A stretch of DNA of 64,000 nucleotides. It comes from Candidatus Nanoarchaeia archaeon (GTDB taxonomy: Archaea; Nanobdellota; Nanobdellia; Pacearchaeales; GW2011-AR1). The stretch lies in assembly GCA_028718805.1 (NCBI GenBank), contig JAQUKY010000002.1:1424-65423 (forward strand), in the 5' to 3' direction. The notes beneath the pieces are model-generated. The model was not told where the DNA came from, made no database searches, and worked only from the letters and a program-made list of their open reading frames with translations. The position numbers and the translations under genes were made by a program. Below, piece by piece: positions 6,367 to 25,864 of this stretch (position 1 is its first letter; every line of letters begins with the position of its first letter).

Positions 6367-7307
6367 AAACGAAAATAAGTGTTGTGATTTTAACTTACAA
6401 TTCAGCAGGTAGTATAGAGAAATGTTTAAAATCCTTAGAAAATCAAACAAATAAAAATTTTGAAGTTTTAATTGTTGATGATGATTCAACAGATAATACT
6501 TTGGGTTTAATTAAAAGAAATCTTGAAAATTATTATTTTAAGATAAAGTTCTTTAGAAATGGTGCACACAATATTTCAAGAGGGAGAAATATTGGTATAA
6601 AGAATGCAGAGACAAGATACGTTGCATTCTTAGACTCAGATGCTTATGCTGATGAAAATTGGGTTGAGAATATTCTATTAAATTTTAATAGAGATAAAGA
6701 ATTAGTTCTTGTTGGGGGAAGAGAAATACCAATCTATACAAATAATTTTTCAAAAGGGAATTCTTTAAATGATTTAACAATAAATAAATTAGCCTCTAAC
6801 TTCTGGGCAATCAAAGGATGTAATTTTGCTATAGATAAAGATAAGTTAGATGGAAATATTTTTAATGAAAAATTTATTCATAATGAAGAAGCAGAATTTA
6901 TTGAGAGATTAAATAAGAAGGGTAAAAAATATAAGTTTGATAAAGAAATCAAAGTTCATCATGAAACCAGATCTACTCCTGCTAAATTTATAAAACAAAT
7001 TTATAAATATGGAATATGGAGAGTTTTCTTTTCTTTTTATTCTAACAAATCTAGGTTAGTTGATTTTTATCCCTCTGTTTTGATTATCTTATCAATAATA
7101 TTGATGTTTAACAATTTCTTAATAGGATTATTACTAATTCCAATTTTTAGTTTAGTTCAATCTATCTTTGTGATTATTTATAATAAAAGTTCTTTGAACT
7201 TTTTACCATATTCTTTTCTTGGGTGGTTGATTAAAAATATTGGATGGGGGGTTGGTATTTTCGTGGGGCTAATTAAATATCCTTTTATTAAAGAGAACTT
7301 AAAATGA
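6363..7307 (+). CDS. family-2 glycosyltransferase with C-terminal membrane helices
   Basis: ISVVILTYNSAGSIEKCLKSLENQT, LIVDDDSTDNT and AFLDSDAYADENW, followed by a hydrophobic C-terminal 90 aa. 4-nt overlap with the upstream gene. Confidence 0.75.
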   Translation: MKTKISVVILTYNSAGSIEKCLKSLENQTNKNFEVLIVDDDSTDNTLGLIKRNLENYYFKIKFFRNGAHNISRGRNIGIKNAETRYVAFLDSDAYADENWVENILLNFNRDKELVLVGGREIPIYTNNFSKGNSLNDLTINKLASNFWAIKGCNFAIDKDKLDGNIFNEKFIHNEEAEFIERLNKKGKKYKFDKEIKVHHETRSTPAKFIKQIYKYGIWRVFFSFYSNKSRLVDFYPSVLIILSIILMFNNFLIGLLLIPIFSLVQSIFVIIYNKSSLNFLPYSFLGWLIKNIGWGVGIFVGLIKYPFIKENLK

Positions 7308-8227
7308 TATCAGTAATAATTATAGTAAAAAATGACCGAGGGATAGAGAACACTCTTAATTCATTAAAGAAAGTAAAAAAACCAGAAAAAACAGAGATAA
7401 TTGTTGTGGATGCTTCTGAAGGGGCTCTTGATGATATAAAGAAAAAATTTCCAAAAGTAAGATGGATATATTTTCATAATAAAACTGATAAGGAGATAAC
7501 AATTCCTGAACAAAGAAACTTAGGAATAAAGAAATCTAAAAGAGATATCATTGTTTTTATAGATGCAGGATGTACTGCAGACAAAAGATGGTTAAAAGAA
7601 TTAATTCGTCCCATTAGAGAAGAAAATGAAACTTTTGTAACTGGGATGGTAAAGTCTATTAATGAGGAAAAAACTCATGATGTTACCTGGAAGAAACTTA
7701 AAAATTGTAAGTATAGAAATGATGCAGGATCAGCAAATACTGCGTTTATGAAAAAAATTATAGGTAAAATTGGGCATTATGATGAGAATTTCTATTATGG
7801 GTCAGATATAGAATTTAGTTATAGAGCTAAAAAGGGAGGATACAAACTAAGATACAATCCCAAAGCAATTATCTTTCATGATTGGGGTAGTTTAAAACAA
7901 GAACTGAAACGAGGATTTAGATATGGAGAAGCTAGTATTATTATCTATAAGAAACATAGAGATAAATTATACAATCTCTTCAAACTTAAAGAAAATTTAT
8001 TCACTTTCTATGCCTTAGGATTCTTTATTTATGTTATATTCATTCCAATAATCTCCTTTTTTTGGATTGGTTATCCTATATTCCTATTAATACCCTTTTT
8101 TAAGAATATAAAAAATAATCCCCTTAGAAAACTTCTCTTTGATTTCTTTTGGGGATTCGGAGTTCTTAAGGAATTAATCTTTCCTTCAAATTATAAAATA
8201 AAAAACAACAATGACCCCCAAAAATAA
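7304..8227 (+). CDS. family-2 glycosyltransferase with C-terminal membrane helices
   Basis: ISVIIIVKNDRGIENTLNSL, IIVVDASEG and VFIDAGCTADKRW, with a hydrophobic tail. ATGA overlap with the upstream gene. Confidence 0.7.
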   Translation: MISVIIIVKNDRGIENTLNSLKKVKKPEKTEIIVVDASEGALDDIKKKFPKVRWIYFHNKTDKEITIPEQRNLGIKKSKRDIIVFIDAGCTADKRWLKELIRPIREENETFVTGMVKSINEEKTHDVTWKKLKNCKYRNDAGSANTAFMKKIIGKIGHYDENFYYGSDIEFSYRAKKGGYKLRYNPKAIIFHDWGSLKQELKRGFRYGEASIIIYKKHRDKLYNLFKLKENLFTFYALGFFIYVIFIPIISFFWIGYPIFLLIPFFKNIKNNPLRKLLFDFFWGFGVLKELIFPSNYKIKNNNDPQK

Positions 8228-10541
8228 ACTATTCATAGGAATATTGGCATTTATGCTGATTGTAAATATCTTAGTTATCTTTGATATCAATCAATTCTAT
8301 GTTAGGGCAATTTTGGCTTTTATCTTCATTATAACAATTCCGGGTTTGCTTATTATGCTCTGCTTGAAAATCAGAAACATAAATCATTGGGAATATCTTG
8401 TCTATACAATTGGTTTAAGTGTTGCTTTTATTATGTTTGCAGGCTTAGCTGTAAACTGGATACTCCCATTTTTGAATATAACAGACAAGCCTTTATCTCT
8501 TTGGCCTATTTTAATCTGCTTTGATACAATTTTATTAGTATTGTGGTTTATTGCTCACAGAAGAAATGAAGATAATGTTCATCTCTTAATTTTTCCTTTT
8601 AATGAATATGAAGCAATTGGAAAAAGAAGGATATTAGGTTTTATTCCTAAATTTCCCTCATTAACATGGCTTGATAGGATTTTCATGATAATCCCAATTT
8701 TCTTTCCCTTCATGGCAGTTATTGGAGCATTCCTCCTAAACAATCACGGAACAAACATAGTTACTATGATTATGATTGGTGCAATAGCGGTCTATGTTCT
8801 ATTAGTAGTCATCTTCAGAGATAAACTGAATGAAAATGTTTATCCATGGGCGATTTTGATGATAAGCTTGTCTTTACTATTATCGTTTTCTATGAGAAGT
8901 TGGTATATTTCTGGGTGGGATATAAGCCAAGAAACTTATGTTTTTAGGATTACTCTGGAAAATAATATTTGGTCTATTAAAAATTTTAATAATACCTATA
9001 ATACTTGTTTGAGTTTATCAATCTTACCAACAATAATAAAATTATCCACTTCTTTAAATATCCAACTAATTTTTAAACTTATTTTTCAAATCATATTTAT
9101 ATTTCATTCATTAACAATTTTTTTAATTTTTAAAAGATATATCTCAAATATTTTATCCTTTGTCGCATCATTTTTATATTTTGGAACAAGTTATTTCAAT
9201 TTTATTCTCCCAACACTAATACGTCAGGAAATAGCTTTTATATTCTTTGGGTTAATGCTTCTTGTTCTATTTAGTAAGGAGATTGGCCCAAAAGTTAAAA
9301 ATCTATTATTTGTTATCTTTGGCTTTTCAATGATTGTTTCTCACTACTCAACAGCTTACATAGCCCTTGCTCTTTTTTTATTTGCTTATATTTCAATTTT
9401 TTTCTACAAAAAATGGGAAAATAGAAATATTAAAAGAGAAAAGCTAAAACCGGAACAAAAAGAACAATTTTATCTAACAGGCATTTTAATTCTTTTATTG
9501 CTTATTTTTGGATTTTTGTGGTTGTCACAATTAACCGATACCTCAAACGGAATTATATCCACAGTTAAAAAAACTATGGATAACATTGATAGTTCTTTTT
9601 CTTATGATTTAAAACAGTCTTCTATTAAAAGTGCATTATTTGGAAACTCTGAGATCGATAGGTATACTAATAAAGATTTGAATGATTATATTAATGAGAC
9701 TAAATCCTCACTGAGTAATAAAAATTCTTATTCAGAACAACAAACACAAGTTTACTCTCCTAAGATTATGCCTAGGGGGGAGATTATTTATCCTAAAAAT
9801 AAAACTTGGGCATATTTTTTATTCTATTTATATCAATTTATAAAATATCTGATAATACTCTCCTTTATATTAGGTTCTTTGTTTATTTATTTAAATAAGG
9901 AAAGAATAGTTGATAAAGAATTTTCTTTTATAGTAATTATCTCAGTTATTTTAATGTTTTTAATAATTCTGCTTCCTTATGTCTCTAAGGCGTATAATTT
10001 CGAGAGATTATTTCAACAATGTTTGATTTTTTTATCTTTTTCGTCAATTATATTTTTTCAGAAATTGTTTAAGAATTATAAAAAAATATTCCTGATTTTT
10101 GTAATACTCTTATACTTAGGATATTCTCTATTCAATTTAGGAGTTTTATCAACTTATTCCGGAGGAGATCCTACATTAAATCTTTATAATGAAGGTTTAA
10201 CTTATAATATATTATACTTTCATAATGAAGAAATAACTTCTATTCTTTGGTTTAATAAATATTACCAAACAAATGTGGTTTATATGGATCCTTTTTCTGA
10301 GCTTAAATTTTACTGTTTTGGAAATCCCTTGTTGTATCATGATAAAAAAATTATTCCTTTCTTAATGAGTAAATCTTCCTATGTTTATTCTAACTATGTC
10401 AATAAAATAAAGAAAATTAACTATTGGGATGCTAGAGAAAAATTCAATAACGGTGTCTTGCCATTCAACTTCCCCACTGACTTTCTCAACGAAAATAAAA
10501 ATCTCATCTATAATAATGGAGGTTCTGAAATTTTCAAATGA
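8211..10541 (+). CDS. large polytopic membrane protein, candidate glycan polymerase / GT-C-like (DUF2206-like from memory)
   Basis: 776 aa with more than ten hydrophobic helices, hydrophilic segments near aa 400-420 and 450-530, and a soluble C-terminal ~120 aa. Embedded between GT genes with overlapping stops and starts. Confidence 0.5.
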   Translation: MTPKNKLFIGILAFMLIVNILVIFDINQFYVRAILAFIFIITIPGLLIMLCLKIRNINHWEYLVYTIGLSVAFIMFAGLAVNWILPFLNITDKPLSLWPILICFDTILLVLWFIAHRRNEDNVHLLIFPFNEYEAIGKRRILGFIPKFPSLTWLDRIFMIIPIFFPFMAVIGAFLLNNHGTNIVTMIMIGAIAVYVLLVVIFRDKLNENVYPWAILMISLSLLLSFSMRSWYISGWDISQETYVFRITLENNIWSIKNFNNTYNTCLSLSILPTIIKLSTSLNIQLIFKLIFQIIFIFHSLTIFLIFKRYISNILSFVASFLYFGTSYFNFILPTLIRQEIAFIFFGLMLLVLFSKEIGPKVKNLLFVIFGFSMIVSHYSTAYIALALFLFAYISIFFYKKWENRNIKREKLKPEQKEQFYLTGILILLLLIFGFLWLSQLTDTSNGIISTVKKTMDNIDSSFSYDLKQSSIKSALFGNSEIDRYTNKDLNDYINETKSSLSNKNSYSEQQTQVYSPKIMPRGEIIYPKNKTWAYFLFYLYQFIKYLIILSFILGSLFIYLNKERIVDKEFSFIVIISVILMFLIILLPYVSKAYNFERLFQQCLIFLSFSSIIFFQKLFKNYKKIFLIFVILLYLGYSLFNLGVLSTYSGGDPTLNLYNEGLTYNILYFHNEEITSILWFNKYYQTNVVYMDPFSELKFYCFGNPLLYHDKKIIPFLMSKSSYVYSNYVNKIKKINYWDAREKFNNGVLPFNFPTDFLNENKNLIYNNGGSEIFK

Positions 10542-11395
10542 AACTAAAGCAAAAACAAAAAAAACTTGAAGGCGGACTTAGACTTAAAAGAAAAATAAAG
10601 AAGAAACCCTTAATTACAATTATAACCGTTGTTAGAAATGGAGAAAAAAGTCTCGCAAAAACAATAAAAAGCGTAATTAATCAAACTGCTAGAAAATATA
10701 TAGAATATATTATAATTGACGGAAACTCAACTGATAGAACTTTAGATATAACAAGGGAATATAGCTATAAAATCGATTACTGGGTGAGTGAGTCAGATAA
10801 AGGTATTTATGATGCAATGAATAAAGGAGTTAAACTGGCAAAAGGAGAATATATTCAATTTTTGAATGCTGATGACCGTCTTTATGATAAGAGAATAATT
10901 AAAAAAGTTATTTTTGAGATGGTAAAAGAAAATGCGGATATAGTCTATGGGATGATTAAGGATTCTAGAGGGAATATCTGGCCTAAAAAAAAGAGAACCT
11001 TCCAAGATTTTAAAAAAGGAAAGACTCTTGCCCACCCCGCAACATTTATGAAAAAAAAATTGATAATCAGATCAGGATTTTTTGATTTAAGATATAAGAT
11101 TTCAGCAGACAGAGATTTAATATATAAAACATTAAGATTTGATCCCAAAATAATCTTTATAAATAAAATAATAACTTTTTTTAGTTTAGAGGGAATAAGT
11201 TCAAAATCACATATTAATGAACAAGCGAAAATAATAAAAAATAATTTTGGAGAGATTTACTCAATTTACTTCTATTTTTCTCAAGGGCTACCTCTATTAA
11301 TTATGTATTCTTTTTCGTATATTGGGATATTACCTTCATTCAGAAAGTTAAAATCAAGATTGCTTGACAATGTTTTTAGATTTATAAACAAGTAA
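10538..11395 (+). CDS. family-2 glycosyltransferase
   Basis: LITIITVVRNGEKSLAKTIKSVINQT, IIIDGNSTDRTLDI and FLNADD. Confidence 0.75.
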   Translation: MKLKQKQKKLEGGLRLKRKIKKKPLITIITVVRNGEKSLAKTIKSVINQTARKYIEYIIIDGNSTDRTLDITREYSYKIDYWVSESDKGIYDAMNKGVKLAKGEYIQFLNADDRLYDKRIIKKVIFEMVKENADIVYGMIKDSRGNIWPKKKRTFQDFKKGKTLAHPATFMKKKLIIRSGFFDLRYKISADRDLIYKTLRFDPKIIFINKIITFFSLEGISSKSHINEQAKIIKNNFGEIYSIYFYFSQGLPLLIMYSFSYIGILPSFRKLKSRLLDNVFRFINK

Positions 11396-12335: not shown

Positions 12336-14540
12336 TTATTTTCTCCAAACAACCCACGTAAACATTATTGCAGTTATAATCTGCCCAATTAAATAAGCAT
12401 AACCTATCCCTAAAAGGCCATATCCCTGTTTCATAAATAACAATGATAATCCTAAGATTAGAATTGCACTTAAGGTGCTTCTTGTTATTAATGCCGGTAT
12501 TTGTTTTCTTATCTTGATTATGCTTGCAATTACCGCATTTATCGCCACAAAAATCCCATTTATTGCCATAATATTCAAAAACATATAACCTTCGCTTGAA
12601 TACTGTTTTCCAAACAATAATAAAACATATTTCCCAAAGAAAATTGTGATAATTATCGCAGGAATCATGAACAATGCAATCAGCTTAATTGCTTTCCATA
12701 TATTATGCTTTAGGTTTTTTTCATCATAGCTTCCTTCTGCAAATAATGAATTGCTTGTCGCATTTGGGATAATGAAAAGGGCGCTTGCAATTGTCATAGC
12801 CATGTAATAATAAGCAGATGTTTCTGCCCCGATATTATTCAAGATTATCAAAGGAAGGATCAAGGTAGGTAATGCAGAAATAATGCCTGCGAGATAATTC
12901 CCAAAGCTATATTTCCCTATTTTTTTGATTATTGAATCATAAAAAGCAAACTTTGGCTTATAGTTAAATCTGTAGATTAAAACAAAAAAGCTTACAATAG
13001 CCCCGGATGTTATCGCAAGCATATATGACCCAAAAATACCGTAAGCTCCTAAGCTTACAAGTAAAAATGGAAAAACTAATTTCAAAACAGAATAGATTGA
13101 ATTTTCAAGCAAAACAAATTTAGTGTTTCTATATGCAATAAAAATACTGTCAATTAAACCTCCTAAACTGCTAATGACTAAGAATATAATAAAAATAAAT
13201 GCCAACAGCATGTTTTCTTTAATAAAATGCAGTTTTGGAGAAGTGAAATCAATAACAAGCAGGAAAATAACACTTACAACAATTGTAAATAATGCAATAA
13301 GAGTAAAGCATGTGTTTATCTTCTCATTTTTTCTTTCTGAGCCTGGGAGATATCTTATTAGTCCTGCTCCCAACCCCAAACCCGCTATTGAAGTTATTAA
13401 TGAAGCAGCAGAAATTATTGTTGTAGCTAATCCAACCTGTTCTGTTGTGAACAGCCTTGCATTTATCATCCAGAAAACAAAACCAAAAACTGACATGATA
13501 AATGTGCTTAACATTAAATATAAAGAATTTTTATAAAGAGTATCTCTTGGAATAAAATTTGATTTTTCATCCTTCATCCATTTGTAAAATAGAAACCAAA
13601 ATACTGCAAAATATAGCAGGAAGAAAATCATTCCCGTATAGCTATGGTACATTCCCATAGCAACATCTTTTGAAACATAAGCTCCAACTAAGAATAGTAT
13701 GAAAACTCTTAAAACATTTACTAAAAAAGCACCTATTACTGCTGGAACGAACAAAAGATAGGCTTTTTTCTTGTTTATTTTCTTCCAGTCTACAAACATA
13801 ATAAAGAGATATAATGCTGAAAACAAGAATATAGAATAAATTCCTGAGCAGGCTTCTGCAATTTGAGCTCCAAAACTTCCAACTATTATTGTTCTTGGTT
13901 CAATAATTCTAAAATCTGCGCCAATAATTTTTAAAAGAACCGCAGTCATTCTTAATACTAAATCACTAAAATAAGGCCATAAACTCCAGACTAAATTCAT
14001 TAAACTCGCTGTTACAATTCCAAAGATAATAAAATAGCCTAATTCTTTTTTAAACTTCTTAATGAACTCTTTAATAAACTCAAATCCATAAACAGCTAAA
14101 CCAAGAAAAACAAATGTAGAAACTCCTAAAATATGGACTAAAAGAATATTGATTGTGCTTATTGGTATTTTGTTGGCATTTATTTCAAACAGATAAAATC
14201 CTATTAATAAAATAAATGAAATAACTAATAAAAGGAAATCTTTTACTTTATACCTGAATTTTTCAAGCTTTAACAGCCTATCCCTGTAAAGAAGAATAAA
14301 TCCTGCGATAGAGAACAGTAGGATGTAACCAACCCTGCCCCAAATTTCAATTTTCCAGTCAGATAATATCCCATACTGATACAGCTTTGTTCCTATAACG
14401 ACTGCAAAAGCCATGAATAAAGCTATGAATATGATTGTTTTTATTAAAAACTGCTTGAAGCCTTTGTTTAAACTGCCGAATCTGCCTAATCTGTCTGCAC
14501 TACTTAATCTGCTGAACTTATTTGGCTTATTTTTTATCAT
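12336..14540 (-). CDS. fusion protein: N-terminal exosortase/archaeosortase-family domain + C-terminal Wzx-type (MOP superfamily) polysaccharide flippase
   Basis: A single 734-codon frame. Polytopic aa ~40-320 carries AEACSGIYS (Cys231, codon 13848-13850), NVLRVF (Arg278) and MYHSYTG (His299). From aa ~335 onward, LYKNSLYLMLSTFIMSVFGFVFWMINARLFTTEQVGLATTIISAASL plus about 10 more helices is typical of Polysacc_synt/Wzx proteins. Confidence 0.7.
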   Translation of the reverse strand: MIKNKPNKFSRLSSADRLGRFGSLNKGFKQFLIKTIIFIALFMAFAVVIGTKLYQYGILSDWKIEIWGRVGYILLFSIAGFILLYRDRLLKLEKFRYKVKDFLLLVISFILLIGFYLFEINANKIPISTINILLVHILGVSTFVFLGLAVYGFEFIKEFIKKFKKELGYFIIFGIVTASLMNLVWSLWPYFSDLVLRMTAVLLKIIGADFRIIEPRTIIVGSFGAQIAEACSGIYSIFLFSALYLFIMFVDWKKINKKKAYLLFVPAVIGAFLVNVLRVFILFLVGAYVSKDVAMGMYHSYTGMIFFLLYFAVFWFLFYKWMKDEKSNFIPRDTLYKNSLYLMLSTFIMSVFGFVFWMINARLFTTEQVGLATTIISAASLITSIAGLGLGAGLIRYLPGSERKNEKINTCFTLIALFTIVVSVIFLLVIDFTSPKLHFIKENMLLAFIFIIFLVISSLGGLIDSIFIAYRNTKFVLLENSIYSVLKLVFPFLLVSLGAYGIFGSYMLAITSGAIVSFFVLIYRFNYKPKFAFYDSIIKKIGKYSFGNYLAGIISALPTLILPLIILNNIGAETSAYYYMAMTIASALFIIPNATSNSLFAEGSYDEKNLKHNIWKAIKLIALFMIPAIIITIFFGKYVLLLFGKQYSSEGYMFLNIMAINGIFVAINAVIASIIKIRKQIPALITRSTLSAILILGLSLLFMKQGYGLLGIGYAYLIGQIITAIMFTWVVWRK

Positions 14541-14549
14541 GTTAAATTA

Positions 14550-14930
14550 TCAGAACTCTTTTTTAGCTAATCTTTTGGCAATGCCCTCATAATATCTTCC
14601 GAGAGAGGCGTAAATCTCAGGAGATTTGTCCCTTTTAATAACTGCCATTCTTCCATCATCTTCAAACCCCATCTCCTTCCTGCTTGTCATTTCATAACTG
14701 ATAACTGCCCCGCAAAACAGCTTTTTTATTAATGAGTCCAGGGGTTTATCAGTGTCTATGCTAAATTTCCCATTATTAGATATTACCTCTGCTTGTAGAT
14801 CCATGTATGATGTAAAAATCTCTTTAGGTAAAAGTTTATTTGCAGTTGCAATTTCTCTGGCTCTTGCATCTGATAAATCATCAATTGAGCTTATAACTGG
14901 TGTTTTTTTCTTTCCGAACATTTTCAACAT
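14550..14930 (-). CDS. hypothetical soluble protein, first gene of the sortase-flippase operon
   Basis: 126-aa ORF ending 9 nt before the fusion gene start. Purine-rich GGAGAAGGAGAG upstream. No motif recognised. Confidence 0.45.
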   Translation of the reverse strand: MLKMFGKKKTPVISSIDDLSDARAREIATANKLLPKEIFTSYMDLQAEVISNNGKFSIDTDKPLDSLIKKLFCGAVISYEMTSRKEMGFEDDGRMAVIKRDKSPEIYASLGRYYEGIAKRLAKKEF

Positions 14931-15138: not shown

Positions 15139-15747
15139 ATGGAATATAATCCTGAGGAAAAAGAGATAATTTCAAACAAGGAGCTGAATGAACTTGATAA
15201 GTTTGTAATTGATTTTTGCAGTTATTTAGATGAATATGTTATTGTTTCAGGTTATGTTTCCATATTATTGGGGAGAAGCAGGGCAACAGAAGATGTAGAT
15301 TTATTAATACCTTCAATGAGCAAAGAAGAATTTGAAATCCTTTGGGATAAGCTGCATAATAATGATTTTGAATGTATGAACACTTCTGATCCTGGTGAAG
15401 CATTTAAAATGCTTAAAGAGCATGCAATCAGATTTTTTAAGAGAGGCAAGCCAACCCCTAATATTGAGTTTAAGATTATAAAAAATGATTTGGATAAATA
15501 TGCATATGAAAATAAGCTCAGGGTTATATTGACTAAAGGGGAATTATTTATCTCTCCTTTAGAATCCCAAATTCCTTACAAGCTTTTTTTAGCTGCTGAC
15601 GGGGCTGATAAAGAGCTTCAGTCAGATAAAGATATTGAGGATGCAAGGCATTTATACAAACTTTTTGAACAAAAGCTTAATAAAGAAGAACTGCTTTTTT
15701 TTATTAATAAACTAAAGGTTGATAAAAAATTAAAGTTTTTAAAATGA
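15139..15747 (+). CDS. putative nucleotidyltransferase-fold protein
   Basis: 202 aa. VSGYVSILLGRSRATEDVDLLI resembles a G-x-x-A/S ... D-x-D Pol-beta-type NTase motif. Weak call. Confidence 0.35.
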   Translation: MEYNPEEKEIISNKELNELDKFVIDFCSYLDEYVIVSGYVSILLGRSRATEDVDLLIPSMSKEEFEILWDKLHNNDFECMNTSDPGEAFKMLKEHAIRFFKRGKPTPNIEFKIIKNDLDKYAYENKLRVILTKGELFISPLESQIPYKLFLAADGADKELQSDKDIEDARHLYKLFEQKLNKEELLFFINKLKVDKKLKFLK

Positions 15748-15950
15748 AAGCATCTGAAGTTAAAGTTGATATAGAAGAATTAAAGAGATTCAAGGCTCAA
15801 AATGCCAGAGAGAGATTAAAATTCATTGATTTCTGGGCAGAATACATTAAAACTCATTCAGATGAAGACTGGAGCAAGCAGCAGAATATGCTTATTGATT
15901 CTCAGATAGAGTCTGCAGATAGCTTTGCTTTAACGCAGGGAAAATCTTAA
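15744..15950 (+). CDS. small hypothetical protein coupled to 15139..15747
   Basis: 68-aa ORF with an ATGA overlap to the upstream gene. Confidence 0.35.
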   Translation: MKASEVKVDIEELKRFKAQNARERLKFIDFWAEYIKTHSDEDWSKQQNMLIDSQIESADSFALTQGKS

Positions 15951-15975
15951 AGCTCAAACAAGAGCTCATTTAAAG

Positions 15976-16060
15976 GAAATTGGGATTTTTGATGGTTAAA
16001 GGTGTTTGAGTAGCTTTGTCTGATTGCCCCTTAGAACTTCGCCTTTGGATATTACTGATA
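15976..16060 (+). repeat. intergenic mosaic repeat, composite copy 2
   Basis: GAAATTGGGATTTTTGATGGTTAAAGGTGTTTGA ... CTGATTGCCCC ... TTCGCCTTTGGATATTACTGATA. Confidence 0.75.
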
Positions 16061-16132
16061 CTTGGTTTAATTAAACGAAAGATTTATAAGTAGGAAAATC
16101 TTACCTTCTTACATAAGGAATATAAACATAAA

Positions 16133-16339
16133 ATGGAAATAACAAAAATAAGTTCAAAGGGACAGGTAGTAATACCATCTAAAATAAGAATAGAATTAGG
16201 GATAGAAGAAGGCTCTGTGTTAGGAGTAGAAAAAATGAAAGATATGGTAATTCTAAAAAAAATAGATTTAGATTTAGTAAGGCAATTCAAAGAAGGATTA
16301 GAAGATTTAAGATCAGGAAGAGTTAAAAGAGTTGCTTAA
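16133..16339 (+). CDS. AbrB/SpoVT-family antitoxin-like DNA-binding protein
   Basis: MEITKISSKGQVVIPSKIRIELGIEEGSVLGVEKMKDMVILKKI is a swapped-hairpin motif. Paralogous to 39764..39997. Confidence 0.7.
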   Translation: MEITKISSKGQVVIPSKIRIELGIEEGSVLGVEKMKDMVILKKIDLDLVRQFKEGLEDLRSGRVKRVA

Positions 16340-16638
16340 TTTTTCTGCATATTTCCTGTATTCTCTAAAATATTTTACAATCTCGCTTATAGTTTCCTTT
16401 TGGGCCTTCTTTCCTCCAATAGCCACCATTAAGACAATTTTCAAGTCATCATAAACAAGATAATATATTCTTTTTTCTTTTATTCTCTTTTCTCTAAAAA
16501 AATTATACCTTATTTGGTCTCCAATATGGGGTTTTCTTTAAGCTGTAAGAATATTTTTTGAATAATCTCTTTATCAAATTCAGAGAGTTTATTCATTTCT
16601 TTGTCAAAAACATTAATAGTATAAACTGCATAAAACAT
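16313..16638 (-). pseudogene. RelE/ParE-family toxin gene interrupted by a 1-nt frameshift
   Basis: Hand translation gives MFYAVYTINVFDKEMNKLSEFDKEIIQKIFLQLKENP in one frame, which then stops. The -1 frame continues HIGDQIRYNFFREKRIKEKRIYYLVYDDLKIVLMVAIGGKKAQ... to a stop at 16313. The switch is at the GGGG run 16528-16531; one extra G/C would restore a ~105-aa RelE-like ORF. Confidence 0.6.
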
Positions 16639-16696
16639 GATTATTTTAAGAATTTTCAGATTTTAAGTTTGTCTATTTCTTCCTCCCCCGCCTTAC

Positions 16697-16719
16697 TTCG
16701 CCTTTGGATATTACTGATA
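16697..16719 (+). repeat. exact 23-mer TTCGCCTTTGGATATTACTGATA (second copy; first at 16038-16060)
   Basis: Identical strings read at both positions. Confidence 0.9.
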
Positions 16720-16750
16720 AAAGTTTTCTTATTAATAGACTTCCAAAAGG

Positions 16751-16780
16751 TTTAAATATAGTATATACTCAGTATATACT
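16751..16780 (+). promoter_or_regulatory. TATA-like box plus tandem palindromic operator candidate
   Basis: TTTAAATATA at 16751-16760. It is followed by two copies of the self-complementary 10-mer AGTATATACT (16760-16769 and 16771-16780) that abut ATG 16781. The spacing implies a leaderless or near-leaderless mRNA. Confidence 0.5.
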
Positions 16781-17563
16781 ATGATACAGGAAGAGAAAAT
16801 ATTGAGGAGAGTGACTGAAATAGGAAATGGGGCGCACATCTTTGCCCCGAAAGAATGGCTTCATGAAGAAGTTATAATAATCAGGGTTCCAAGAAAAAAT
16901 CCGAAGGAAGAAATACTTAAATTAATTTACCCCCATCTTGACAAAATAATCGCTGTTTTCCTTTTTGGGAGCTATGCAAGAAACGAGCAGGAAATGGACT
17001 CAGATATGGATGTTTTTGTAGTCTCCAGCGAGAAATTTAAAATCAGGGCAAAAGACATAGAGGTTATTGTTATCCCTGAAGACAAGCTGGAAACAGCAAA
17101 GAGGCTCAACCCGGTTTTATTTTATTCAATGCTGCAGGAAGCAAGGCCGATAATAAACCCCTCTTACTTGGAGAAGTTAAAACAAGAAAAAGTTAGGTTT
17201 GATTATTTTAAGGATTTTTTAAAGGGAACTGAAAGTTCAATAAAATCAATCCAGGAGATAATGGAAATGGACAGGAAGCTTAAAAATAAAGAGGCTCCAG
17301 GGAGTGTAATTTACTCCCTAATCCTAAGGCTCAGGGGGATATTTATCATCAACTTTCTTTTAAATAAGAAAAAATACTCAAAAAAAGCATTCCTAGCCTG
17401 GCTTATTAAAAATTTAGAAGTAGATTTTGATAATATTCATAAGGTTTATAGGGCTTTTAGGGATAATAAGAAAATAAGTGGAAAAGTTTCAGTGAAAGAT
17501 GCAGAATCGTTGCTTTCATTTATTATAAAAGAAATAGAAAAACTGTCTAAAAAGATAAAATGA
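16781..17563 (+). CDS. AbrB-like domain fused to minimal nucleotidyltransferase plus helical C-terminal domain
   Basis: The N-terminus ILRRVTEIGNGAHIFAPKEWLHEEVIIIRV is AbrB/SpoVT-like. IIAVFLFGSYARNEQEMDSDMDVFVV is the GS ... DxD Pol-beta NTase motif. The C-terminal ~130 aa are helical with YSLILRLRG. Confidence 0.6.
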   Translation: MIQEEKILRRVTEIGNGAHIFAPKEWLHEEVIIIRVPRKNPKEEILKLIYPHLDKIIAVFLFGSYARNEQEMDSDMDVFVVSSEKFKIRAKDIEVIVIPEDKLETAKRLNPVLFYSMLQEARPIINPSYLEKLKQEKVRFDYFKDFLKGTESSIKSIQEIMEMDRKLKNKEAPGSVIYSLILRLRGIFIINFLLNKKKYSKKAFLAWLIKNLEVDFDNIHKVYRAFRDNKKISGKVSVKDAESLLSFIIKEIEKLSKKIK

Positions 17564-17745
17564 AGAGGAAAAAGAGGATTGAGAAAGGAGTGAAATCTTT
17601 AAAAGAGCAGATAGCAATCCATGAAGAAAAGAAAAAACAGGCAGAAGAAGCAAATCTGCCAGAGCTAGTTAAATACTATGAGAAAGAAATCAGTGGCTTA
17701 GAAAAAACAAAAGACAGAAAAGAAGATCAATTAGAAAAAAACTGA
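17560..17745 (+). CDS. small highly charged helical protein, partner of the AbrB-NTase gene
   Basis: 61 aa with an ATGA overlap to 16781..17563. KRIEKGVKSLKEQIAIHEEK resembles KRIKSTQKQIDKHEGMIENEK in 19249..19449. Confidence 0.45.
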   Translation: MKRKKRIEKGVKSLKEQIAIHEEKKKQAEEANLPELVKYYEKEISGLEKTKDRKEDQLEKN

Positions 17746-17771
17746 ATCTTATAGGTTTTAAAGCTGTTTAA

Positions 17772-18308
17772 TTATCTAGTACTCTGATAGGACAGAATTC
17801 TCCTTAACTCTTCATCAATTTCCTTAAATCCTTTATTAAAAGCAGCTAAGTCCTGGTGGTATCTTTCAGCCCAATTATGAGATTCATAAAATAATCTATT
17901 CAACCCCAGATTAAACACAATAAAATAAACTCCTTTATTGCTTTTTTCCAGGTGAAAGTATAAAGGTATATTATTTGGGTCTTCATTTTCAGGGTTCTCT
18001 GTCAAACCTATTCGTTTATTCATTGCTTCAGAAGATCTTAAATCCAGATGAGCCCTGATTGGATCATCATCTGGTTGCATTTTTATCTGTCTGATAAATG
18101 TGGATAAAGTTCTGGCTAACCCTCCGAGTTTTCTTGATTTTCCGCGGCCGTCATAACCGCCAAACTCAAGTCTTAAGCAAGGTATTTCAATCCCGCTTTG
18201 CGACAAGTCATAATCAGAGAAATAATCAGATTCTACTACTTCTTGTAAATTAGCTAAAGCTTCTTCTGTATGCAAATTTCCAACTTCAAACCTGTAGTAA
18301 TCTCCCAT
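17772..18308 (-). CDS. hypothetical protein between the two AbrB-NTase modules
   Basis: 178-aa ORF with no recognised motif. Confidence 0.45.
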   Translation of the reverse strand: MGDYYRFEVGNLHTEEALANLQEVVESDYFSDYDLSQSGIEIPCLRLEFGGYDGRGKSRKLGGLARTLSTFIRQIKMQPDDDPIRAHLDLRSSEAMNKRIGLTENPENEDPNNIPLYFHLEKSNKGVYFIVFNLGLNRLFYESHNWAERYHQDLAAFNKGFKEIDEELRRILSYQSTR

Positions 18309-18443
18309 GTTAAATTTATCCTGTCAGTTTTCTCAGAATTTAGTCTGAGGTCTTTTCACCTCAACAATTCAATTATATTCTGGTTTATAAGCTTTTCTTC
18401 ACTTCTTTCAAATTTATTTTTAAGAATTATAGATAATAGGTTT

Positions 18444-19244
18444 TTATGCTGATTGCTTCTTAACCATTGCCCTTACCCTTTCAAGGTCTTTCTCCAGGTA
18501 TTCATACAGTTGTTCAGCTTCCTCAACTTTTAGCCTGTTTTCCTCTTTTAGGTTGTTTTTGGAAGCCAGGTATCTTTCATAAGGGTTGTTTGATCCTGAA
18601 ATCCGGTTTATCAGCCTCATAAAATCTTTTTTTGAATAATCTTTGTTTTGCATCAGTCTCTTGATTATTTCAAGAGTCCTTATCCTTAAGATAAGGGTGT
18701 ATGCAATCTTATCTTTTAGGTATCTTTTATTATTTTTTGATTTTTTGGCACCATCAATGTATTCTTTGATTATTCCTAATTTTTCTTCAGTTGTATCAAG
18801 ATACCATTTTATGTTTTCTTTTGTTACCTTGACTTCTATTGAATTAAGGTAATCCTCATTTATAAGAGGTTTTGCTTCTTTTATCATCTGCCCTACAGGG
18901 AATAAATTTTTGATTAATTTTTGATGAAGCAATTGATAAGAAACTATCAGGATATTATAAATCCCTTCTTCAATCATCTCCTTGTCAATTCCATCTGTTA
19001 TGACCAGTATGTCTATATCACTGTTTTCATCTTCTTCCTCTCTTGCATGGCTCCCCACCAGATAGATTCCAATTATTGACTTTAGAGCAATGTATTTTTT
19101 TAAGATTTCAAGCGTATCACTTAATATCATTTCAGAAGTTTTTTTTACTAATTCAATCCTTACTTCCTTGTTCAGCCATGCCCTTGGAAGTATGACTGCT
19201 GAAGAATTTCCTGCCTTGATTGCTTTTTTTACTTGAATTTCCAT
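18444..19244 (-). CDS. AbrB-like domain fused to minimal nucleotidyltransferase plus helical C-terminal domain (paralog)
   Basis: KAIKAGNSSAVILPRAWLNKEVRIELV, IIGIYLVGSHAREEEDENSDIDILVI and YTLILRIRT give the same architecture as 16781..17563. Confidence 0.6.
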   Translation of the reverse strand: MEIQVKKAIKAGNSSAVILPRAWLNKEVRIELVKKTSEMILSDTLEILKKYIALKSIIGIYLVGSHAREEEDENSDIDILVITDGIDKEMIEEGIYNILIVSYQLLHQKLIKNLFPVGQMIKEAKPLINEDYLNSIEVKVTKENIKWYLDTTEEKLGIIKEYIDGAKKSKNNKRYLKDKIAYTLILRIRTLEIIKRLMQNKDYSKKDFMRLINRISGSNNPYERYLASKNNLKEENRLKVEEAEQLYEYLEKDLERVRAMVKKQSA

Positions 19245-19569: not shown

Positions 19570-19971
19570 TTATATCCAATAATTATGTTCAATGATAAAG
19601 ATATCTATGATAAGATGGACTGCAACGCCTATCACAAAAAGCAGATAAGCCCAGTTTATTTCTTTGACCTGCTCTTTTTTCAGCCTTTTGATATAATACA
19701 GAAAGAAACTTGAGAAGATAACAAACAGGCCTATTATAACCCAGGTATGATAATCAGAGCCAAATGCTTCTAGTTTCCAGAATAGTTTATCTCTCAATAT
19801 CATAACGGGGGAAAATGTCCTTAATTTTATTCCTGTTATCCCGAACTTGATTGCATCAGGAATGATCTGCCCGATAAAAATAGAAATGCCATACAGCCAT
19901 TTCCTTGATACAATCATAACTATAATCATAAGAGCCAATGAAACTCCCAAATGTGTTAGTAATCCTGCCAT
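19570..19971 (-). CDS. integral membrane protein (4 helices)
   Basis: 133 aa. MAGLLTHLGVSLALMIIVMIV... is hydrophobic throughout. Confidence 0.5.
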   Translation of the reverse strand: MAGLLTHLGVSLALMIIVMIVSRKWLYGISIFIGQIIPDAIKFGITGIKLRTFSPVMILRDKLFWKLEAFGSDYHTWVIIGLFVIFSSFFLYYIKRLKKEQVKEINWAYLLFVIGVAVHLIIDIFIIEHNYWI

Positions 19972-21260: not shown

Positions 21261-21752
21261 TTATCTTCTTCTAACTAAAAAGAAAACACCTACAGCACTT
21301 ACAAGTGTTAAGCTTCCTGCAAATAATCCAAATTCAGGTATTAAGTTCAAAGGAACATTGATAATGCCTACATCTAAACATTTAACCGCGGTATTCTCAA
21401 TTTCTCCTGAATTTTCGCCGCTTAGCTCACCTTTTGTTGCAGTAACAATTGCTTCATCTCCGTCTTCACACTGGCTTTGCGGAAACATAACAAAATAACT
21501 CCCTTTTAACATAATACTATTTGGGCCATCGTTATTCAAACTTTTTACAATCTGTGAGTGGCCATCACAGGTTATATTAACAATTGCATTTCCAACAGGG
21601 GCATTGTTGTTTGTAATGTCATAAATCCTTCCTCTGACAATTGTCCAGCCAAAAGGGCAGTCAGATTGATTGTTATAATCACATGCAGCAACATAGCTTA
21701 TACTTACTAATAGAAATAATGCCAATATTGGTAAAATAAATGATTTTTTCAT
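21261..21752 (-). CDS. secreted CarboxypepD_reg-like domain protein with PEF-CTERM sorting tail
   Basis: Signal peptide MKKSFILPILALFLLVSISYVAA. GRIYDITNNNAPVGNAIVNITCDG is a beta-sandwich motif. The C-terminus is IPEFGLFAGSLTLVSAVGVFFLVRRR. Confidence 0.7.
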   Translation of the reverse strand: MKKSFILPILALFLLVSISYVAACDYNNQSDCPFGWTIVRGRIYDITNNNAPVGNAIVNITCDGHSQIVKSLNNDGPNSIMLKGSYFVMFPQSQCEDGDEAIVTATKGELSGENSGEIENTAVKCLDVGIINVPLNLIPEFGLFAGSLTLVSAVGVFFLVRRR

Positions 21753-21809
21753 GTTGTATAATTGTAATATTATTAAAAATCACTCTCAATTATTGTTTGA
21801 TTAGCTTGA

Positions 21810-22259
21810 TTATTTCCTTCTAATCAAAAAGAACACCCCAACAGCACCCATCAAAGTCAAAGCGCCTACAAAAACCCCGAATTCTGGGATTAAAGCTATG
21901 TTAATAACTCCTAAATATAAATCAAAGTTTTCAGTATAATCTTGTACATCTGCGGTCATAGTATCACTCGTAACATCACCCAATGTAGCATATGCGCTTG
22001 CTTCTATATCATAACAACCTTCTTCTGGAGCATATTCAACAGAATAAGTTCCATCAATTTTGCTTGTTGCAGTTTTTGTTATATTATTACAAGTTACATA
22101 AACAGTTGCATCAGCAACTGGGTTTGCATCTTCAAAATTAGCTGAATCATAAATTTTTCCGGCTATAAGAGTTTTATATTGTGCAACATCAGCACTTACC
22201 ATTGCTATAGAAGCAATTAAGAATAATGTCATGAATGTTAATGCTAGTATCTTTTTCAT
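21810..22259 (-). CDS. secreted CarboxypepD_reg-like domain protein with PEF-CTERM sorting tail (tandem paralog)
   Basis: Signal peptide, AGKIYDSANFEDANPVADATVYVTCNN, and C-terminus IPEFGVFVGALTLMGAVGVFFLIRRK. Confidence 0.7.
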   Translation of the reverse strand: MKKILALTFMTLFLIASIAMVSADVAQYKTLIAGKIYDSANFEDANPVADATVYVTCNNITKTATSKIDGTYSVEYAPEEGCYDIEASAYATLGDVTSDTMTADVQDYTENFDLYLGVINIALIPEFGVFVGALTLMGAVGVFFLIRRK

Positions 22260-23359: not shown

Positions 23360-24055
23360 ATGAAAAAACTCTATTTCATCCTGCTTGTTTTGGCATTTAT
23401 CCTTCCTGAGATAATGCTGAACGTAAACAAATATGCAGGAGTCTTGATTTATGCAGTTATTATTGGATTTATTCTTTTTGATATTGAAGAATATGAATTT
23501 ATGAACAACAGCGAGAAACTGCTTATTTTTCTTATGATAATCCCTCTTGCTAGGATATCTGAATTTTTTATTAATTTCAACTTTTTCTGGAAAACAGCTA
23601 TTTTTTATTTTGTTATATGCTTCTTGGTTATATTATATACAGGGAAATTTAGGATAAATCCCAGATATACAAAAAGCAAATTATGGTTTCTTCCTATATC
23701 TATTATAATTGGTATATGCCTTAGCTATATAGGAAGCCTGTATTTTGACTTTGGAAATCATTTTGAACTTGTATTTCTTATTCCGTTTATAGTTTTTTCA
23801 GAGGAGATTTTGTTCAGAGGAATGATTCAGAATATTGCAAAAAAAGAATATGGCTCAATGGTCTCGGTTATCTGTGTGTCATTATTGTTTGCTATTTTCA
23901 GCTTAAGCTTTGGGTTTAAATTTGCATATTTCATGTTTGCAGCAAATCTGATTATGTGTTTAGTCTATGACAGGACAGAAAACATATGGCTCACAATTCC
24001 TATAAATCTCTGCATAAATCTCTTCTTGTTTGTTATGCATATGCCTTATTTGTAA
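23360..24055 (+). CDS. CPBP (CAAX protease/Abi) family membrane protein, His motifs not evident
   Basis: 231 aa, polytopic. FSEEILFRGMIQN is the EExxxR motif. At the positions where FxxxH and HxxxN are expected I read FAIFS and INLCIN. Confidence 0.6.
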   Translation: MKKLYFILLVLAFILPEIMLNVNKYAGVLIYAVIIGFILFDIEEYEFMNNSEKLLIFLMIIPLARISEFFINFNFFWKTAIFYFVICFLVILYTGKFRINPRYTKSKLWFLPISIIIGICLSYIGSLYFDFGNHFELVFLIPFIVFSEEILFRGMIQNIAKKEYGSMVSVICVSLLFAIFSLSFGFKFAYFMFAANLIMCLVYDRTENIWLTIPINLCINLFLFVMHMPYL

Positions 24056-24154: not shown

Positions 24155-24883
24155 ATGGGTTTCAAAAAAACATTAGCGAGTTTGGTTCTTGCTGGAGCCT
24201 TGGCTATCGGAGGATTGTGCAGCAAGGCAAAATGTGATAATTATGATTTTGCCCCGCCCTCATATAGAGGCCAGCCGCAATCTGCACAATTTATCTGGGA
24301 TTTTACTTCACAGCCAGATATAATCCACAATACTTCTCCTTTTGGTACTGTGAATTATGTATCTGCAGTTAAAAGCTCTGTTGGGAGCCTTGCTGGGAAT
24401 GGAACTATGCGTTGGAATGATAATTCTTTTTACTGGGACACAAACAGCAATAAGTTCACGAAATTATATGACCCTGTTCTTCAAAGTCCTGAAGTATGCG
24501 GTTTAACCCTGGCTATGCCAAACTTTAACAATATGCCTAAAAAAGAAATGCGCATACAGATAACTTATGGAAATGCATTGGATTCTAATTCCCCTCTGCC
24601 AAATCCGTCTTTCTCGAACCCGAGTATCCCGTCCATTCCGGGGTGGCCGCCACCTGAAGGAACAATACATGTGCCTGAAGGTTATGCAAGAATAGATTCT
24701 AACCATTTTTATCAGGATTTGGCATTCTATCCAAGCCCTGAAAGAGAAATGTTTAATATCGGTTTCAAGAACAGCGCGTATATAGACAAGATAATTATAG
24801 ACACCATCTCTATTCCAGAGCCTTCAACCATCGGCTTGCTGGGATTAGGAAGTCTGGCCCTGGTTAAAAAAAGAAAAAAATAA
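24155..24883 (+). CDS. secreted protein with PEP-CTERM-type sorting tail
   Basis: Signal peptide MGFKKTLASLVLAGALAIGGLCSKA. The C-terminus IPEPSTIGLLGLGSLALVKKRKK has Pro-Glu-Pro, a hydrophobic helix and a basic cluster. Confidence 0.65.
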   Translation: MGFKKTLASLVLAGALAIGGLCSKAKCDNYDFAPPSYRGQPQSAQFIWDFTSQPDIIHNTSPFGTVNYVSAVKSSVGSLAGNGTMRWNDNSFYWDTNSNKFTKLYDPVLQSPEVCGLTLAMPNFNNMPKKEMRIQITYGNALDSNSPLPNPSFSNPSIPSIPGWPPPEGTIHVPEGYARIDSNHFYQDLAFYPSPEREMFNIGFKNSAYIDKIIIDTISIPEPSTIGLLGLGSLALVKKRKK

Positions 24884-25039: not shown

Positions 25040-25864
25040 CTATTTTCTTCTTATGACAAAGAAAACACAAACAGCGCCTGTGAGGGTTAAAACCCCGGCG
25101 AAAGTGCTGAATTCAGGGATTATTACAGGGGTGTAATATTCTGGTTTATAAAATTCTCTTAAACCTTCATAAGCATCAATAAGTTCAGGATGCTCATCTA
25201 AGATGCCTCTTATTTCTTCAACACTTCTCTGTTCATTTAGTCTGTTTTTGGTTGTTATAAGATAAAAGTCTGTTTCTTTTTCTCCACACCAGGTTACCTT
25301 GTTGGCTTCAATATCTTTTGCTTCAAAATCCATATCCCCTTTTCCGATTATATCAACTTTATTATTCTCTTTGTCAAATGTTGCAATGATATCATAAAAG
25401 CTTAATTTATCCTGATTCAATGCCCCATCACCAACTGCTTTGAATTTTAGTGTCTGGGCGTTTGTTTCTAAAATTTCTGTGATTTCAAAATCTAAATTAA
25501 ATATATTATACCTCCCTTCCCGGGCAGTTAATCTTCCTCCGCCTAACCCCCCATTTGGTAACGGTATGTAAAAGCCTAAATCAATATTACCAAGGCTCAT
25601 CTCATCAATATCCAGGTTGTCTCCTCCTGCGCTCACAGAGCATTTGTCATCTGTAACATATCCATATGTTTTCTGAACCTCAAAATTATATTCAATTAAA
25701 ACCTCTTTTATAATTTTGGAGCTTGCCTTTTCAGTTCCAGCACTTGTTTGTATGTAAATTGGAATATTAAAATCAGCAGCAGAAACAATTTCAACAAAAA
25801 CACTCAGAATTATTAAACTTAGTAAAATATTCAGTATTAAAAAAACCCTTATTTTGCCTGTCAT
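25040..25864 (-). CDS. secreted protein with PEF-CTERM sorting tail
   Basis: N-terminal anchor IRVFLILNILLSLIILSVFVEIVSA and C-terminus IPEFSTFAGVLTLTGAVCVFFVIRRK. Confidence 0.65.
   Translation of the reverse strand: MTGKIRVFLILNILLSLIILSVFVEIVSAADFNIPIYIQTSAGTEKASSKIIKEVLIEYNFEVQKTYGYVTDDKCSVSAGGDNLDIDEMSLGNIDLGFYIPLPNGGLGGGRLTAREGRYNIFNLDFEITEILETNAQTLKFKAVGDGALNQDKLSFYDIIATFDKENNKVDIIGKGDMDFEAKDIEANKVTWCGEKETDFYLITTKNRLNEQRSVEEIRGILDEHPELIDAYEGLREFYKPEYYTPVIIPEFSTFAGVLTLTGAVCVFFVIRRK

Follow-up and report, generated by a model that had tools for sequence, protein, structure and literature searches.

The locus analyzed here raises the question of why a single archaeal gene should encode both an enzyme of the exosortase/archaeosortase type and a flippase of the Wzx type. 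It lies in a stretch of 64,000 nucleotides, hereafter the window, from contig JAQUKY010000002.1 (positions 1,424 to 65,423, assembly GCA_028718805.1) of Candidatus Nanoarchaeia archaeon, a member of the DPANN archaea. The results of our analysis indicate that the fusion is real, widespread and apparently undescribed; its product is likely to be the enzyme by which a DPANN sorting system processes C-terminal signals of the PEF type, covalently linked with the Wzx-type flippase that serves a lipid-linked-glycan pathway encoded alongside. The gene and its parts are the following, TM standing for transmembrane:

12336..14540, minus strand: fused gene, 734 amino acids, with a sortase-type domain, a short cytoplasmic linker and a Wzx/MOP flippase domain; 20 predicted TM helices
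13572..14468, minus strand: sortase-like domain, residues 25-323, with 8 TM helices and both termini predicted to be cytoplasmic; matched by PF09721 and TIGR04178
13848..13850, minus strand: TGC codon of Cys231 (part of CxG), which is the putative nucleophile and lies where TM6 ends on the outer side
13707..13709, minus strand: codon of Arg278 (part of NxxR), which lies towards the outer end of TM7
13644..13646, minus strand: codon of His299 (part of HxxxG), where TM8 starts on the outer side
13542..13571, minus strand: linker of ten amino acids, residues 324-333 (DEKSNFIPRD), predicted to be cytoplasmic and belonging to the short-linker class
12339..13541, minus strand: Wzx/MOP-type flippase domain, residues 334-734, with 12 TM helices; matched by PF01943 and PF13440 above their cut-offs

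The open reading frame (ORF) runs without a stop over the 734 codons reported in an earlier note on this DNA, a length far beyond chance expectation at about 30% G+C, and the peptides quoted in that note are in place, with AEACSGIYS beginning at residue 228, NVLRVF at 275, MYHSYTG at 297 and LYKNSLYLM at 335. The two domain assignments proposed in the note are borne out by profile searches. The N-terminal half matches Pfam Exosortase_EpsH (PF09721) over residues 64-319 with 61.6 bits, against a gathering score of 25.7, and the exo_archaeo signature of NCBIfam (TIGR04178) spans residues 226-322 with 50.7 bits (cut-off 23). The C-terminal half matches Polysacc_synt (PF01943) over residues 336-591 with 51.2 bits (cut-off 28.2) and Polysacc_synt_3 (PF13440) over residues 361-648 with 49.1 bits (cut-off 23), while NCBIfam PRK10459 scores 41.4 bits and does not reach its cut-off of 273. 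The defining motifs of the exosortase family are invariant Cys-x-Gly, Asn-x-x-Arg and His-x-x-x-Gly, predicted on three consecutive helices, each at its outer end (PMC1569441, Haft et al. 2006). Cys231, Arg278 and His299, the triad singled out in the earlier note, fall in these motifs and in family order: C231-S-G comes first, then N275-V-L-R278, then H299-S-Y-T-G303. The aligned full-length fused homologues, 65 in all, invariably have C231, S232, G233, R278 and H299, and at least 90% of them retain N275 and G303. By its sequence, the sortase-type domain is complete and apparently active. The fused protein belongs to no curated subfamily: its NCBIfam scores are 31.6 bits for ArtC (TIGR03762, cut-off 100), 31.1 for XrtA (TIGR03109, cut-off 208), 43.5 for XrtV (NF035943, cut-off 313) and 42.4 for the exosortase E/protease or XrtE model (TIGR04162, cut-off 150).

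The two-domain organization is equally evident in the predicted structure. An AlphaFold2 model built on the alignment of the 65 fused homologues has a mean predicted local distance difference test score (pLDDT) of 86.5 and a predicted template modelling score (pTM) of 0.75, with 8 plus 12 TM helices, the latter within residues 334-733. When the positive-inside rule is applied to the helices of the model, loops assigned to the cytoplasm carry 28 lysine and arginine residues and those outside 9. In this predicted topology TM6, TM7 and TM8 carry Cys231, Arg278 and His299, respectively, at their outer ends, and a small three-stranded sheet is modelled immediately N-terminal to Cys231. The ten-residue linker would thus join both domains in a topologically consistent manner, since its cytoplasmic position lets the flippase half keep the canonical orientation with its N-terminus inside. 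In Foldseek searches of the PDB the flippase half matches transporters of the MOP superfamily, with MATE, WzxE and MurJ entries at probability 1.0; the top target-normalized TM-scores, 0.78-0.79, are those of the lipid III flippase WzxE (9g9p and 9g9o, probability 1.0). The same search matched no solved structure to the sortase half, and the sequence of the fused protein gave no meaningful match to the PDB. The C-terminal domain of 12 TM helices is accordingly predicted to have a MOP/Wzx flippase fold, its probable transport of lipid-linked oligosaccharides resting on gene context. By all sequence and fold tests applied, the window protein is a member of both the exosortase/archaeosortase superfamily and the MOP/Wzx family.

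Is the fusion peculiar to this contig? In a protein search space of 5.8 billion entries, both Pfam domains were found together in 68 clusters, 65 of which are full-length proteins of 710-758 amino acids (46-80% identity); local hidden Markov models for each half then classified 80 loci from species-representative genomes (below, L-numbers designate related loci and P-numbers protein representatives). The fused homologues are drawn from NCBI, JGI, ENA and Logan assemblies, with the same architecture and conserved linker classes, and fused genes occur in 8 species-representative genomes. That two genes had been merged by a sequencing, assembly or annotation error, a doubt voiced in the earlier note, has a practically negligible probability against these four sources and eight genomes, and we reject it because at least 65 fused homologues come from independent assemblies. 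Where the source records give a name, these proteins are called 'archaeosortase/exosortase family protein' and assigned to Nanoarchaeota, Pacearchaeota or Nanoarchaeia; this name ignores the flippase half. The presumption that the architecture had not been described holds for the literature searched, which was incomplete in coverage and describes neither a sortase-flippase fusion nor exosortases in DPANN archaea or in bacteria of the Candidate Phyla Radiation (CPR), but the fusion itself is common in DPANN metagenomes and is present in databases under that generic name.

The comparison of related genomes for fused versus split genes returned fused, overlapping, adjacent, distant and reversed forms. 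The fused state is found in the window, L001/L002/L012, L005 and L007-L011; sortase and flippase genes overlap or are adjacent in L003/L004, L013, L030, L031, L032, L040 and L064, and lie 0.7-8.6 kb apart in L016, L019, L020, L023, L026, L037, L039, L045 and L060. About 50 remoter bacterial flippases in the 80-locus scan have no sortase. The nearest flippase-only relatives, of about 415 amino acids and at most 62% identical to the C-terminal half, include P0073, which lies directly downstream of a separate Exosortase_EpsH gene of 306 amino acids with a 4-bp ATGA overlap in two independent assemblies. With only the sortase half as query, exhaustive HMMER searching retrieved 1215 relatives at E ≤0.001, mainly standalone proteins of 300-330 amino acids. 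The reverse order is represented by P0156 (733 amino acids, known from one 4.6-kb contig only), in which Polysacc_synt occupies residues 16-270 and Exosortase residues 508-725, with C639, R686 and H707 intact. P0159 is a 33%-identical fusion with the domain order of the window protein, and in P0153 (743 amino acids, L087 6001-8232) the partner of the sortase is a polysaccharide pyruvyl transferase. Further fusions in the sortase and flippase gene families are a flippase with a GINT1_N glycosyltransferase-like domain (P0082, 720 amino acids), a sortase with about 490 unannotated residues (P0152, 802 amino acids) and a DUF1616-like N-terminus joined to a sortase (P0256, 448 amino acids).

In a tree of the sortase domains, constructed by neighbour-joining only, split forms branch from within the main clade of fused proteins, another fused clade is found elsewhere and P0156 groups among standalone sortases, a topology that points to repeated fusion and fission of the two genes. 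Fused proteins fall into two linker classes, a short one of about 11 amino acids, to which the window protein belongs, and a long one of about 22-23. Since the alignment indicates that long-linker proteins still contain the flippase's own N-terminal segment, an origin of the fusion by read-through of overlapping genes would fit. A conserved methionine before DSLYRNS in the fused proteins was considered as the relic of a start codon and rejected, the whole N-terminal segment of the flippase being retained in the alignment.

If the sortase domain is active, what would it process? The window was scanned for secreted proteins whose C-terminus combines a TM helix with a basic tail. The cargo that the earlier note had suspected 7-11 kb away was found as four tailed proteins, three with PEF tails and one of the PEP-CTERM type:

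21261..21752, minus strand: candidate cargo of 163 amino acids with a signal peptide, Cys-rich, tail LIPEFGLFAGSLTLVSAVGVFFLVRRR; its mature part has homologues among the cargo of related loci, in 27 further ORFs
21810..22259, minus strand: candidate cargo of 149 amino acids, tail LIPEFGVFVGALTLMGAVGVFFLIRRK; weak CarboxypepD_reg-like match
25040..25864, minus strand: candidate cargo of 274 amino acids, tail IIPEFSTFAGVLTLTGAVCVFFVIRRK; PEF-CTERM model TIGR03024 at 12.8 bits, cut-off 23
24155..24883, plus strand: candidate cargo of a second type, 242 amino acids, PEP-CTERM, tail SIPEPSTIGLLGLGSLALVKKRKK; TIGR02595 at 24.6 bits (cut-off 16) and PF07589 at 25.9 (cut-off 20.7)

The three PEF tails are nearly identical and follow the pattern (L/I)IPEF(G/S)xFxGxLTLxxAVxVFFxxRR(K/R). 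The occurrence of a PEP-CTERM protein beside PEF-type cargo in an apparently archaeal genome is a separate observation; no homologue of this protein was found in the related loci.

In related loci, one to seven copies of PEF-tailed proteins are encoded directly upstream of the sortase gene, beside fused and split forms alike, and such tails are present in 17 of the 24 non-redundant loci with a sortase as compared with 3 of the 58 in which none was detected (Fisher p=1.8e-9). All three exceptions are archaeal, and in two of them (L006 and L022) the query match reaches the end of the locus, so that the sortase gene is not called. Among 43 non-redundant tails, selected by the PEF triplet, the distance from the Pro of this triplet to the C-terminus is exactly 25 residues in 36, and the consensus is PEFGxxxGxLTxLxAxGxFFxVRRK, with Gly following PEF in 91%. 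Pro-Glu-Phe stands directly N-terminal to the TM helix. The cargo proteins are mostly of 145-190 amino acids, contain 3.75% Cys (background 1.57%) and N-x-S/T sequons at twice the background density, and many are mutually homologous in their mature part. Since the locus scan relied on patterns derived from the flippase, a second search was started from the sortase side; it recovers the same cassette, with the standalone sortase P0121 lying within a full one. In the case of the sortase-pyruvyl transferase fusion P0153, a gene for a protein with a PEY tail overlaps upstream, and a flippase and DUF2206 are at most 5 kb away. The standalone sortases P0128 and P0135 gave no information on gene context, their contigs being too short.

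The cassette has a recurring order, namely a CPBP/Rce1-like protease, PEF cargo, a membrane protein of about 133 amino acids and the sortase with the flippase, followed a few kb beyond by DUF2206 and glycosyltransferases. The counterparts in the window are the CPBP gene, the cargo at 21261..22259, the 133-residue protein, the fused gene and the DUF2206 gene, listed here with their neighbours:

23360..24055, plus strand: CPBP/Rce1-like intramembrane protease within the cargo cluster; PF02517 at 51.4 bits, MrtS and MrtJ below threshold
19570..19971, minus strand: membrane protein of about 133 amino acids between cargo and sortase; H7, D39, H119, D123 and E128 invariant
8211..10541, plus strand: DUF2206 membrane protein of 776 amino acids; PF09971; AlphaFold2 pLDDT 86, pTM 0.88
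4477-5205, plus strand: cytoplasmic glycosyltransferase, GT2
5215-6366, plus strand: cytoplasmic glycosyltransferase, GT9
6363-7307, plus strand: cytoplasmic glycosyltransferase, GT2
7304-8227, plus strand: cytoplasmic glycosyltransferase, GT2
10538..11395, plus strand: GT2 glycosyltransferase, 285 amino acids
11416..12357, minus strand: GT2 glycosyltransferase, 313 amino acids, directly downstream of the fused gene, the end of which is overlapped by its listed GTG start by 22 nt
14550..14930, minus strand: ORF of 126 amino acids, orphan or lineage-specific, 10 bp upstream of the fused gene

Homologues of the CPBP protease are found upstream of cargo, in matching position, in 12 related loci. 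The 133-residue protein, which is conserved and always encoded between cargo and sortase, has only sub-threshold matches to YdjM and Zn_dep_PLPC (Zn-dependent phospholipase C, PLC) in a relaxed Pfam scan, and its profile matched no PDB sequence; from its invariant residues, it may be a YdjM/PLC-like membrane metallohydrolase acting on a lipid anchor. DUF2206 is present in at least 12 related loci, and the copy in the window is 99% identical to a partial protein whose record bears the name 'Candidatus Nanoarchaeia archaeon'. The ten best Foldseek matches of its model are all of the GT-C class (STT3, PglB, AglB, AftA and ALG12, which use lipid-linked sugars) at probabilities of 0.97-1.0, while its sequence matched nothing among PDB sequences, the relaxed Pfam scan yielded nothing useful and the literature searched does not mention the family. 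As modelled, DUF2206 may be a family of GT-C enzymes, so far uncharacterized, in DPANN and CPR organisms. The adjoining glycosylation locus of the earlier note is present, with five GT2 genes, one GT9 gene and DUF2206; related loci carry GT4 genes. The three-gene operon postulated in the same note (126-residue ORF, fusion and GT2) exists in the window but is not a conserved unit, since the 126-residue ORF is an orphan, and only L032 and L060 have, downstream of the flippase, a homologue of the GT2 in matching position. That ORF, which has no Pfam or NCBIfam match and no homologue in 85 related loci, was rejected as a member of the system. The conserved partners of the sortase and flippase are PEF-tail cargo, the CPBP protease, the membrane protein of about 133 residues and DUF2206.

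The 133-residue and fused genes, adjacent in related loci, are separated in the window by about 4.5 kb (15139..19244) holding unrelated genes, including two proteins with nucleotidyltransferase domains (NTP_transf_2/Polbeta) and unannotated ORFs; in L001, too, NTP_transf_2 and HEPN genes lie on the flanks of the fused gene. The genes in this interval look like insertions of toxin-antitoxin or defence type. A DUF2283 protein is encoded between the 133-residue gene and the cargo genes (20519-20875, minus strand), and genes for tRNA-Leu(TAA) (31069-31154, minus strand) and tRNA-Thr(CGT) (35805-35878, plus strand) lie further along the window. Sortase and flippase genes are also found on contigs labelled, in their records, as Daviesbacteria (L013), Levyibacteriota (L031) and Saccharibacteria (L064), as well as on a 1.3-Mb contig labelled Gammaproteobacteria (L060). 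In L013, L031 and L060, DUF2206 is present, a gene for a protein with a VPEFG tail abuts the sortase gene and CPBP was not detected. This distribution suggests either that the cassette has moved between DPANN archaea and bacteria (CPR or others) or that contigs were mis-binned. L087, a locus of 50% G+C, holds the cassette together with a VanY gene.

How would such a cassette operate? By homology to ArtA and sortases, the cargo would be exported and retained by its C-terminal helix, whereupon Cys231 would attack it at the PEF motif in the outer leaflet, releasing the peptide that comprises the TM helix and RRK and forming an acyl-enzyme intermediate. Gene context suggests that the neighbouring GT2 and GT9 enzymes (GT4 in related loci) build an oligosaccharide linked to polyprenyl phosphate, that the flippase half delivers it to the same spot of the outer leaflet and that the GT-C-like DUF2206, the sortase or both use the delivered glycan. 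In archaea, the carrier lipid for such a flippase would be of the dolichol type. With sortase and flippase brought together at the glycan supply, the fusion would therefore enforce a 1:1 stoichiometry and keep cargo processing or anchoring within nanometres of that supply, in one assembly line for surface glycoproteins. In a conservative version of this scheme the glycan would go to DUF2206, which would glycosylate the cargo or build a polymer, and the fusion would provide stoichiometry and co-localization; alternatively, the flipped glycolipid itself would be the acceptor that resolves the acyl-enzyme, comparable to the archaetidylethanolamine proposed for ArtA. The scheme in general is supported, among other observations, by the PEF tails that accompany the sortase in fused and split relatives and by the ties of the sortase to glycan enzymes in other fusions, for instance with the pyruvyl transferase of P0153. 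The coupling of sorting to glycan export advanced in the earlier note is thus backed by the split, fused and reversed arrangements, although we infer the coupling itself.

Several points weigh against the interpretation of the gene as a sorting enzyme coupled to glycan export. The cargo in the window, at 7-11 kb, is not adjacent to the fused gene; the best score of the curated PEF-CTERM model is below its cut-off, and the other two PEF proteins of the window do not match it; the fused protein reaches no specific Xrt or Art subfamily cut-off in NCBIfam; and the fold match of DUF2206 is weak, with TM-scores of 0.30-0.47 and E of 0.01-0.2. Moreover, the true tail-processing enzyme could be the CPBP protease, whose gene lies among the cargo genes, and the interconversion of fused and split forms implies that the covalent linkage is not needed for function. 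This last point leads to a plainer account of the fusion, in which overlapping and translationally coupled genes merged by stop loss in streamlined DPANN genomes, the two domains serving the same general pathway with no mechanistic gain from their linkage. A single indel would suffice to fuse the genes of split relatives, given their 4-bp overlap (ATGA), long-linker proteins keep the N-terminal segment of the flippase and the nesting of split forms within the fused clade indicates easy interconversion; because the two states interconvert so freely, we allow this account a minor share of credence, while considering it unlikely in view of the independent reverse-order fusion P0156, the second fused clade, the maintenance of adjacency across deep divergence, CPR-labelled loci included, and the conserved short-linker class of the window protein, trimmed to about 11 residues.

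Another alternative assigns the removal of PEF tails to the CPBP protease at 23360..24055 and some other role in glycan assembly to the sortase-like domain. Myxosortases process MYXO-CTERM tails in this way, and CPBP enzymes are established sorting proteases (PMC11980579); the gene precedes the cargo directly in the window and 12 related loci, and its sub-threshold matches MrtS and MrtJ are proteases of C-terminal sorting systems. The CPBP-processed signals described so far carry an invariant Cys in their motif, which the PEF tails lack. Furthermore, cargo abuts the sortase in L013, L031 and L060, where CPBP was not detected, the sortase triad is invariant and the TM helix follows directly on the PEF and PEP motifs, an arrangement known from exosortase and archaeosortase signals. 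NCBIfam TIGR04162 describes the exosortase E/protease of the VPEID-CTERM system, the protease part of which we take to be of CPBP type, and if so the two enzyme types would be able to cooperate and not only to substitute for each other. Altogether, we regard CPBP as a very doubtful candidate for the tail-processing step. There remains the version of the coupled scheme that resembles the attachment of glycosylphosphatidylinositol (GPI) anchors, in which a flipped polyprenyl-phosphate glycan with an amine-bearing sugar or substituent would resolve the Cys231 acyl-enzyme, so that the C-terminus of the cargo becomes joined to a glycolipid. The sortase is repeatedly fused to or overlapping with the flippase in both orders, a linker of about 10 residues keeps the domains side by side and the sortase is also fused to a glycan-modifying pyruvyl transferase; the model for ArtA has a lipid amine as acceptor, made by genes syntenic with artA (PMC7157517), and the one-step transpeptidase nature of exosortases is still debated, their acceptor being unidentified (bioRxiv 10.1101/2023.06.07.544157). 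Conversely, the GT-C-like DUF2206 encoded nearby would be a conventional consumer of the glycan, so that the flippase needs no unusual role, no gene for the biosynthesis of amino sugars or ethanolamine phosphate was identified in the cassette, and split and distant arrangements also exist. We thus put this hand-over forward tentatively, as a rather improbable variant of the coupled scheme.

The comparison with known systems places the window cassette near several of them without equating it to any. ArtC (TIGR03762) and its PEF-CTERM cargo are similar in superfamily, Cys/Arg/His motifs and archaeal host, and the cargo shares a signal composed of Pro-Glu-Phe, an adjoining TM helix and a basic cluster, in this order. 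Yet the enzyme and tails of the window are below both NCBIfam cut-offs, its host is a DPANN archaeon, the enzyme is fused to or overlaps with a flippase and the cassette comprises CPBP, the 133-residue protein and DUF2206. The only archaeal member of the family studied experimentally is ArtA of Haloferax volcanii, which removes a C-terminal helix, is linked to lipid anchoring and had its catalytic Cys173 tested by mutagenesis (PMC7157517, PMC6098224). ArtA differs in standing alone and in recognizing PGF instead of PEF. In Methanosarcina, artA is syntenic with pssA and pssD, which make the proposed acceptor lipid, archaetidylethanolamine (PMC7157517); these partners produce a phospholipid headgroup, whereas the partner in the window is a flippase for lipid-linked glycans.

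Bacterial XrtA/EpsH belongs to the same family, is encoded in loci for polysaccharide biosynthesis and processes PEP-CTERM proteins (PMC1569441), one of which is also present in the window. Precedents for the fusion of a sortase with an accessory domain are XrtA-EpsI (PMC1569441) and the exosortase E/protease of the VPEID-CTERM system (TIGR04162); the partner in the window is instead a MOP flippase, a combination that the literature searched does not describe. A further difference from exosortase systems concerns the hosts, since DPANN archaea and CPR bacteria lack an outer membrane. The flippase half resembles WzxE and MurJ in its Polysacc_synt domain, its 12 TM helices, the cytoplasmic N-terminus and the location in a glycosyltransferase locus, but is covalently preceded by a protease/transpeptidase domain of 8 TM helices. 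Sortase A with lipid II and the GPI transamidase of eukaryotes both employ a Cys protease that cuts off a C-terminal signal at the outer face of the membrane and passes the protein on to an acceptor, which is a lipid-linked glycan or peptide. Their likeness to the window enzyme would be a functional analogy without homology, dependent on the hand-over model.

The acceptors of the widespread exosortases and archaeosortases are unsettled, and the recurrent pairing of sortase and flippase gives a specific lead on partner and acceptor. A sortase that is fused to a flippase, overlaps with it, follows it in reversed order or is fused to another glycan enzyme constitutes a 'Rosetta stone' signal of functional linkage, by which the vague connection of exosortases with polysaccharide loci becomes a specific and testable hypothesis. 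To our knowledge, the cell-surface biology of the ultra-small DPANN and CPR organisms, relevant to their episymbiosis, is almost uncharacterized; our analysis defines for DPANN and CPR-labelled loci a compact surface-protein cassette composed of PEF cargo, CPBP protease, a small putative metallohydrolase, sortase plus flippase and the GT-C-like DUF2206. Were the less probable hand-over model true, DPANN archaea and some CPR bacteria would anchor small surface proteins via a C-terminal glycolipid, with the flipped glycan as acyl acceptor, and the cassette would represent a prokaryotic counterpart of GPI anchoring together with the first identified acceptor for an enzyme of the exosortase type.

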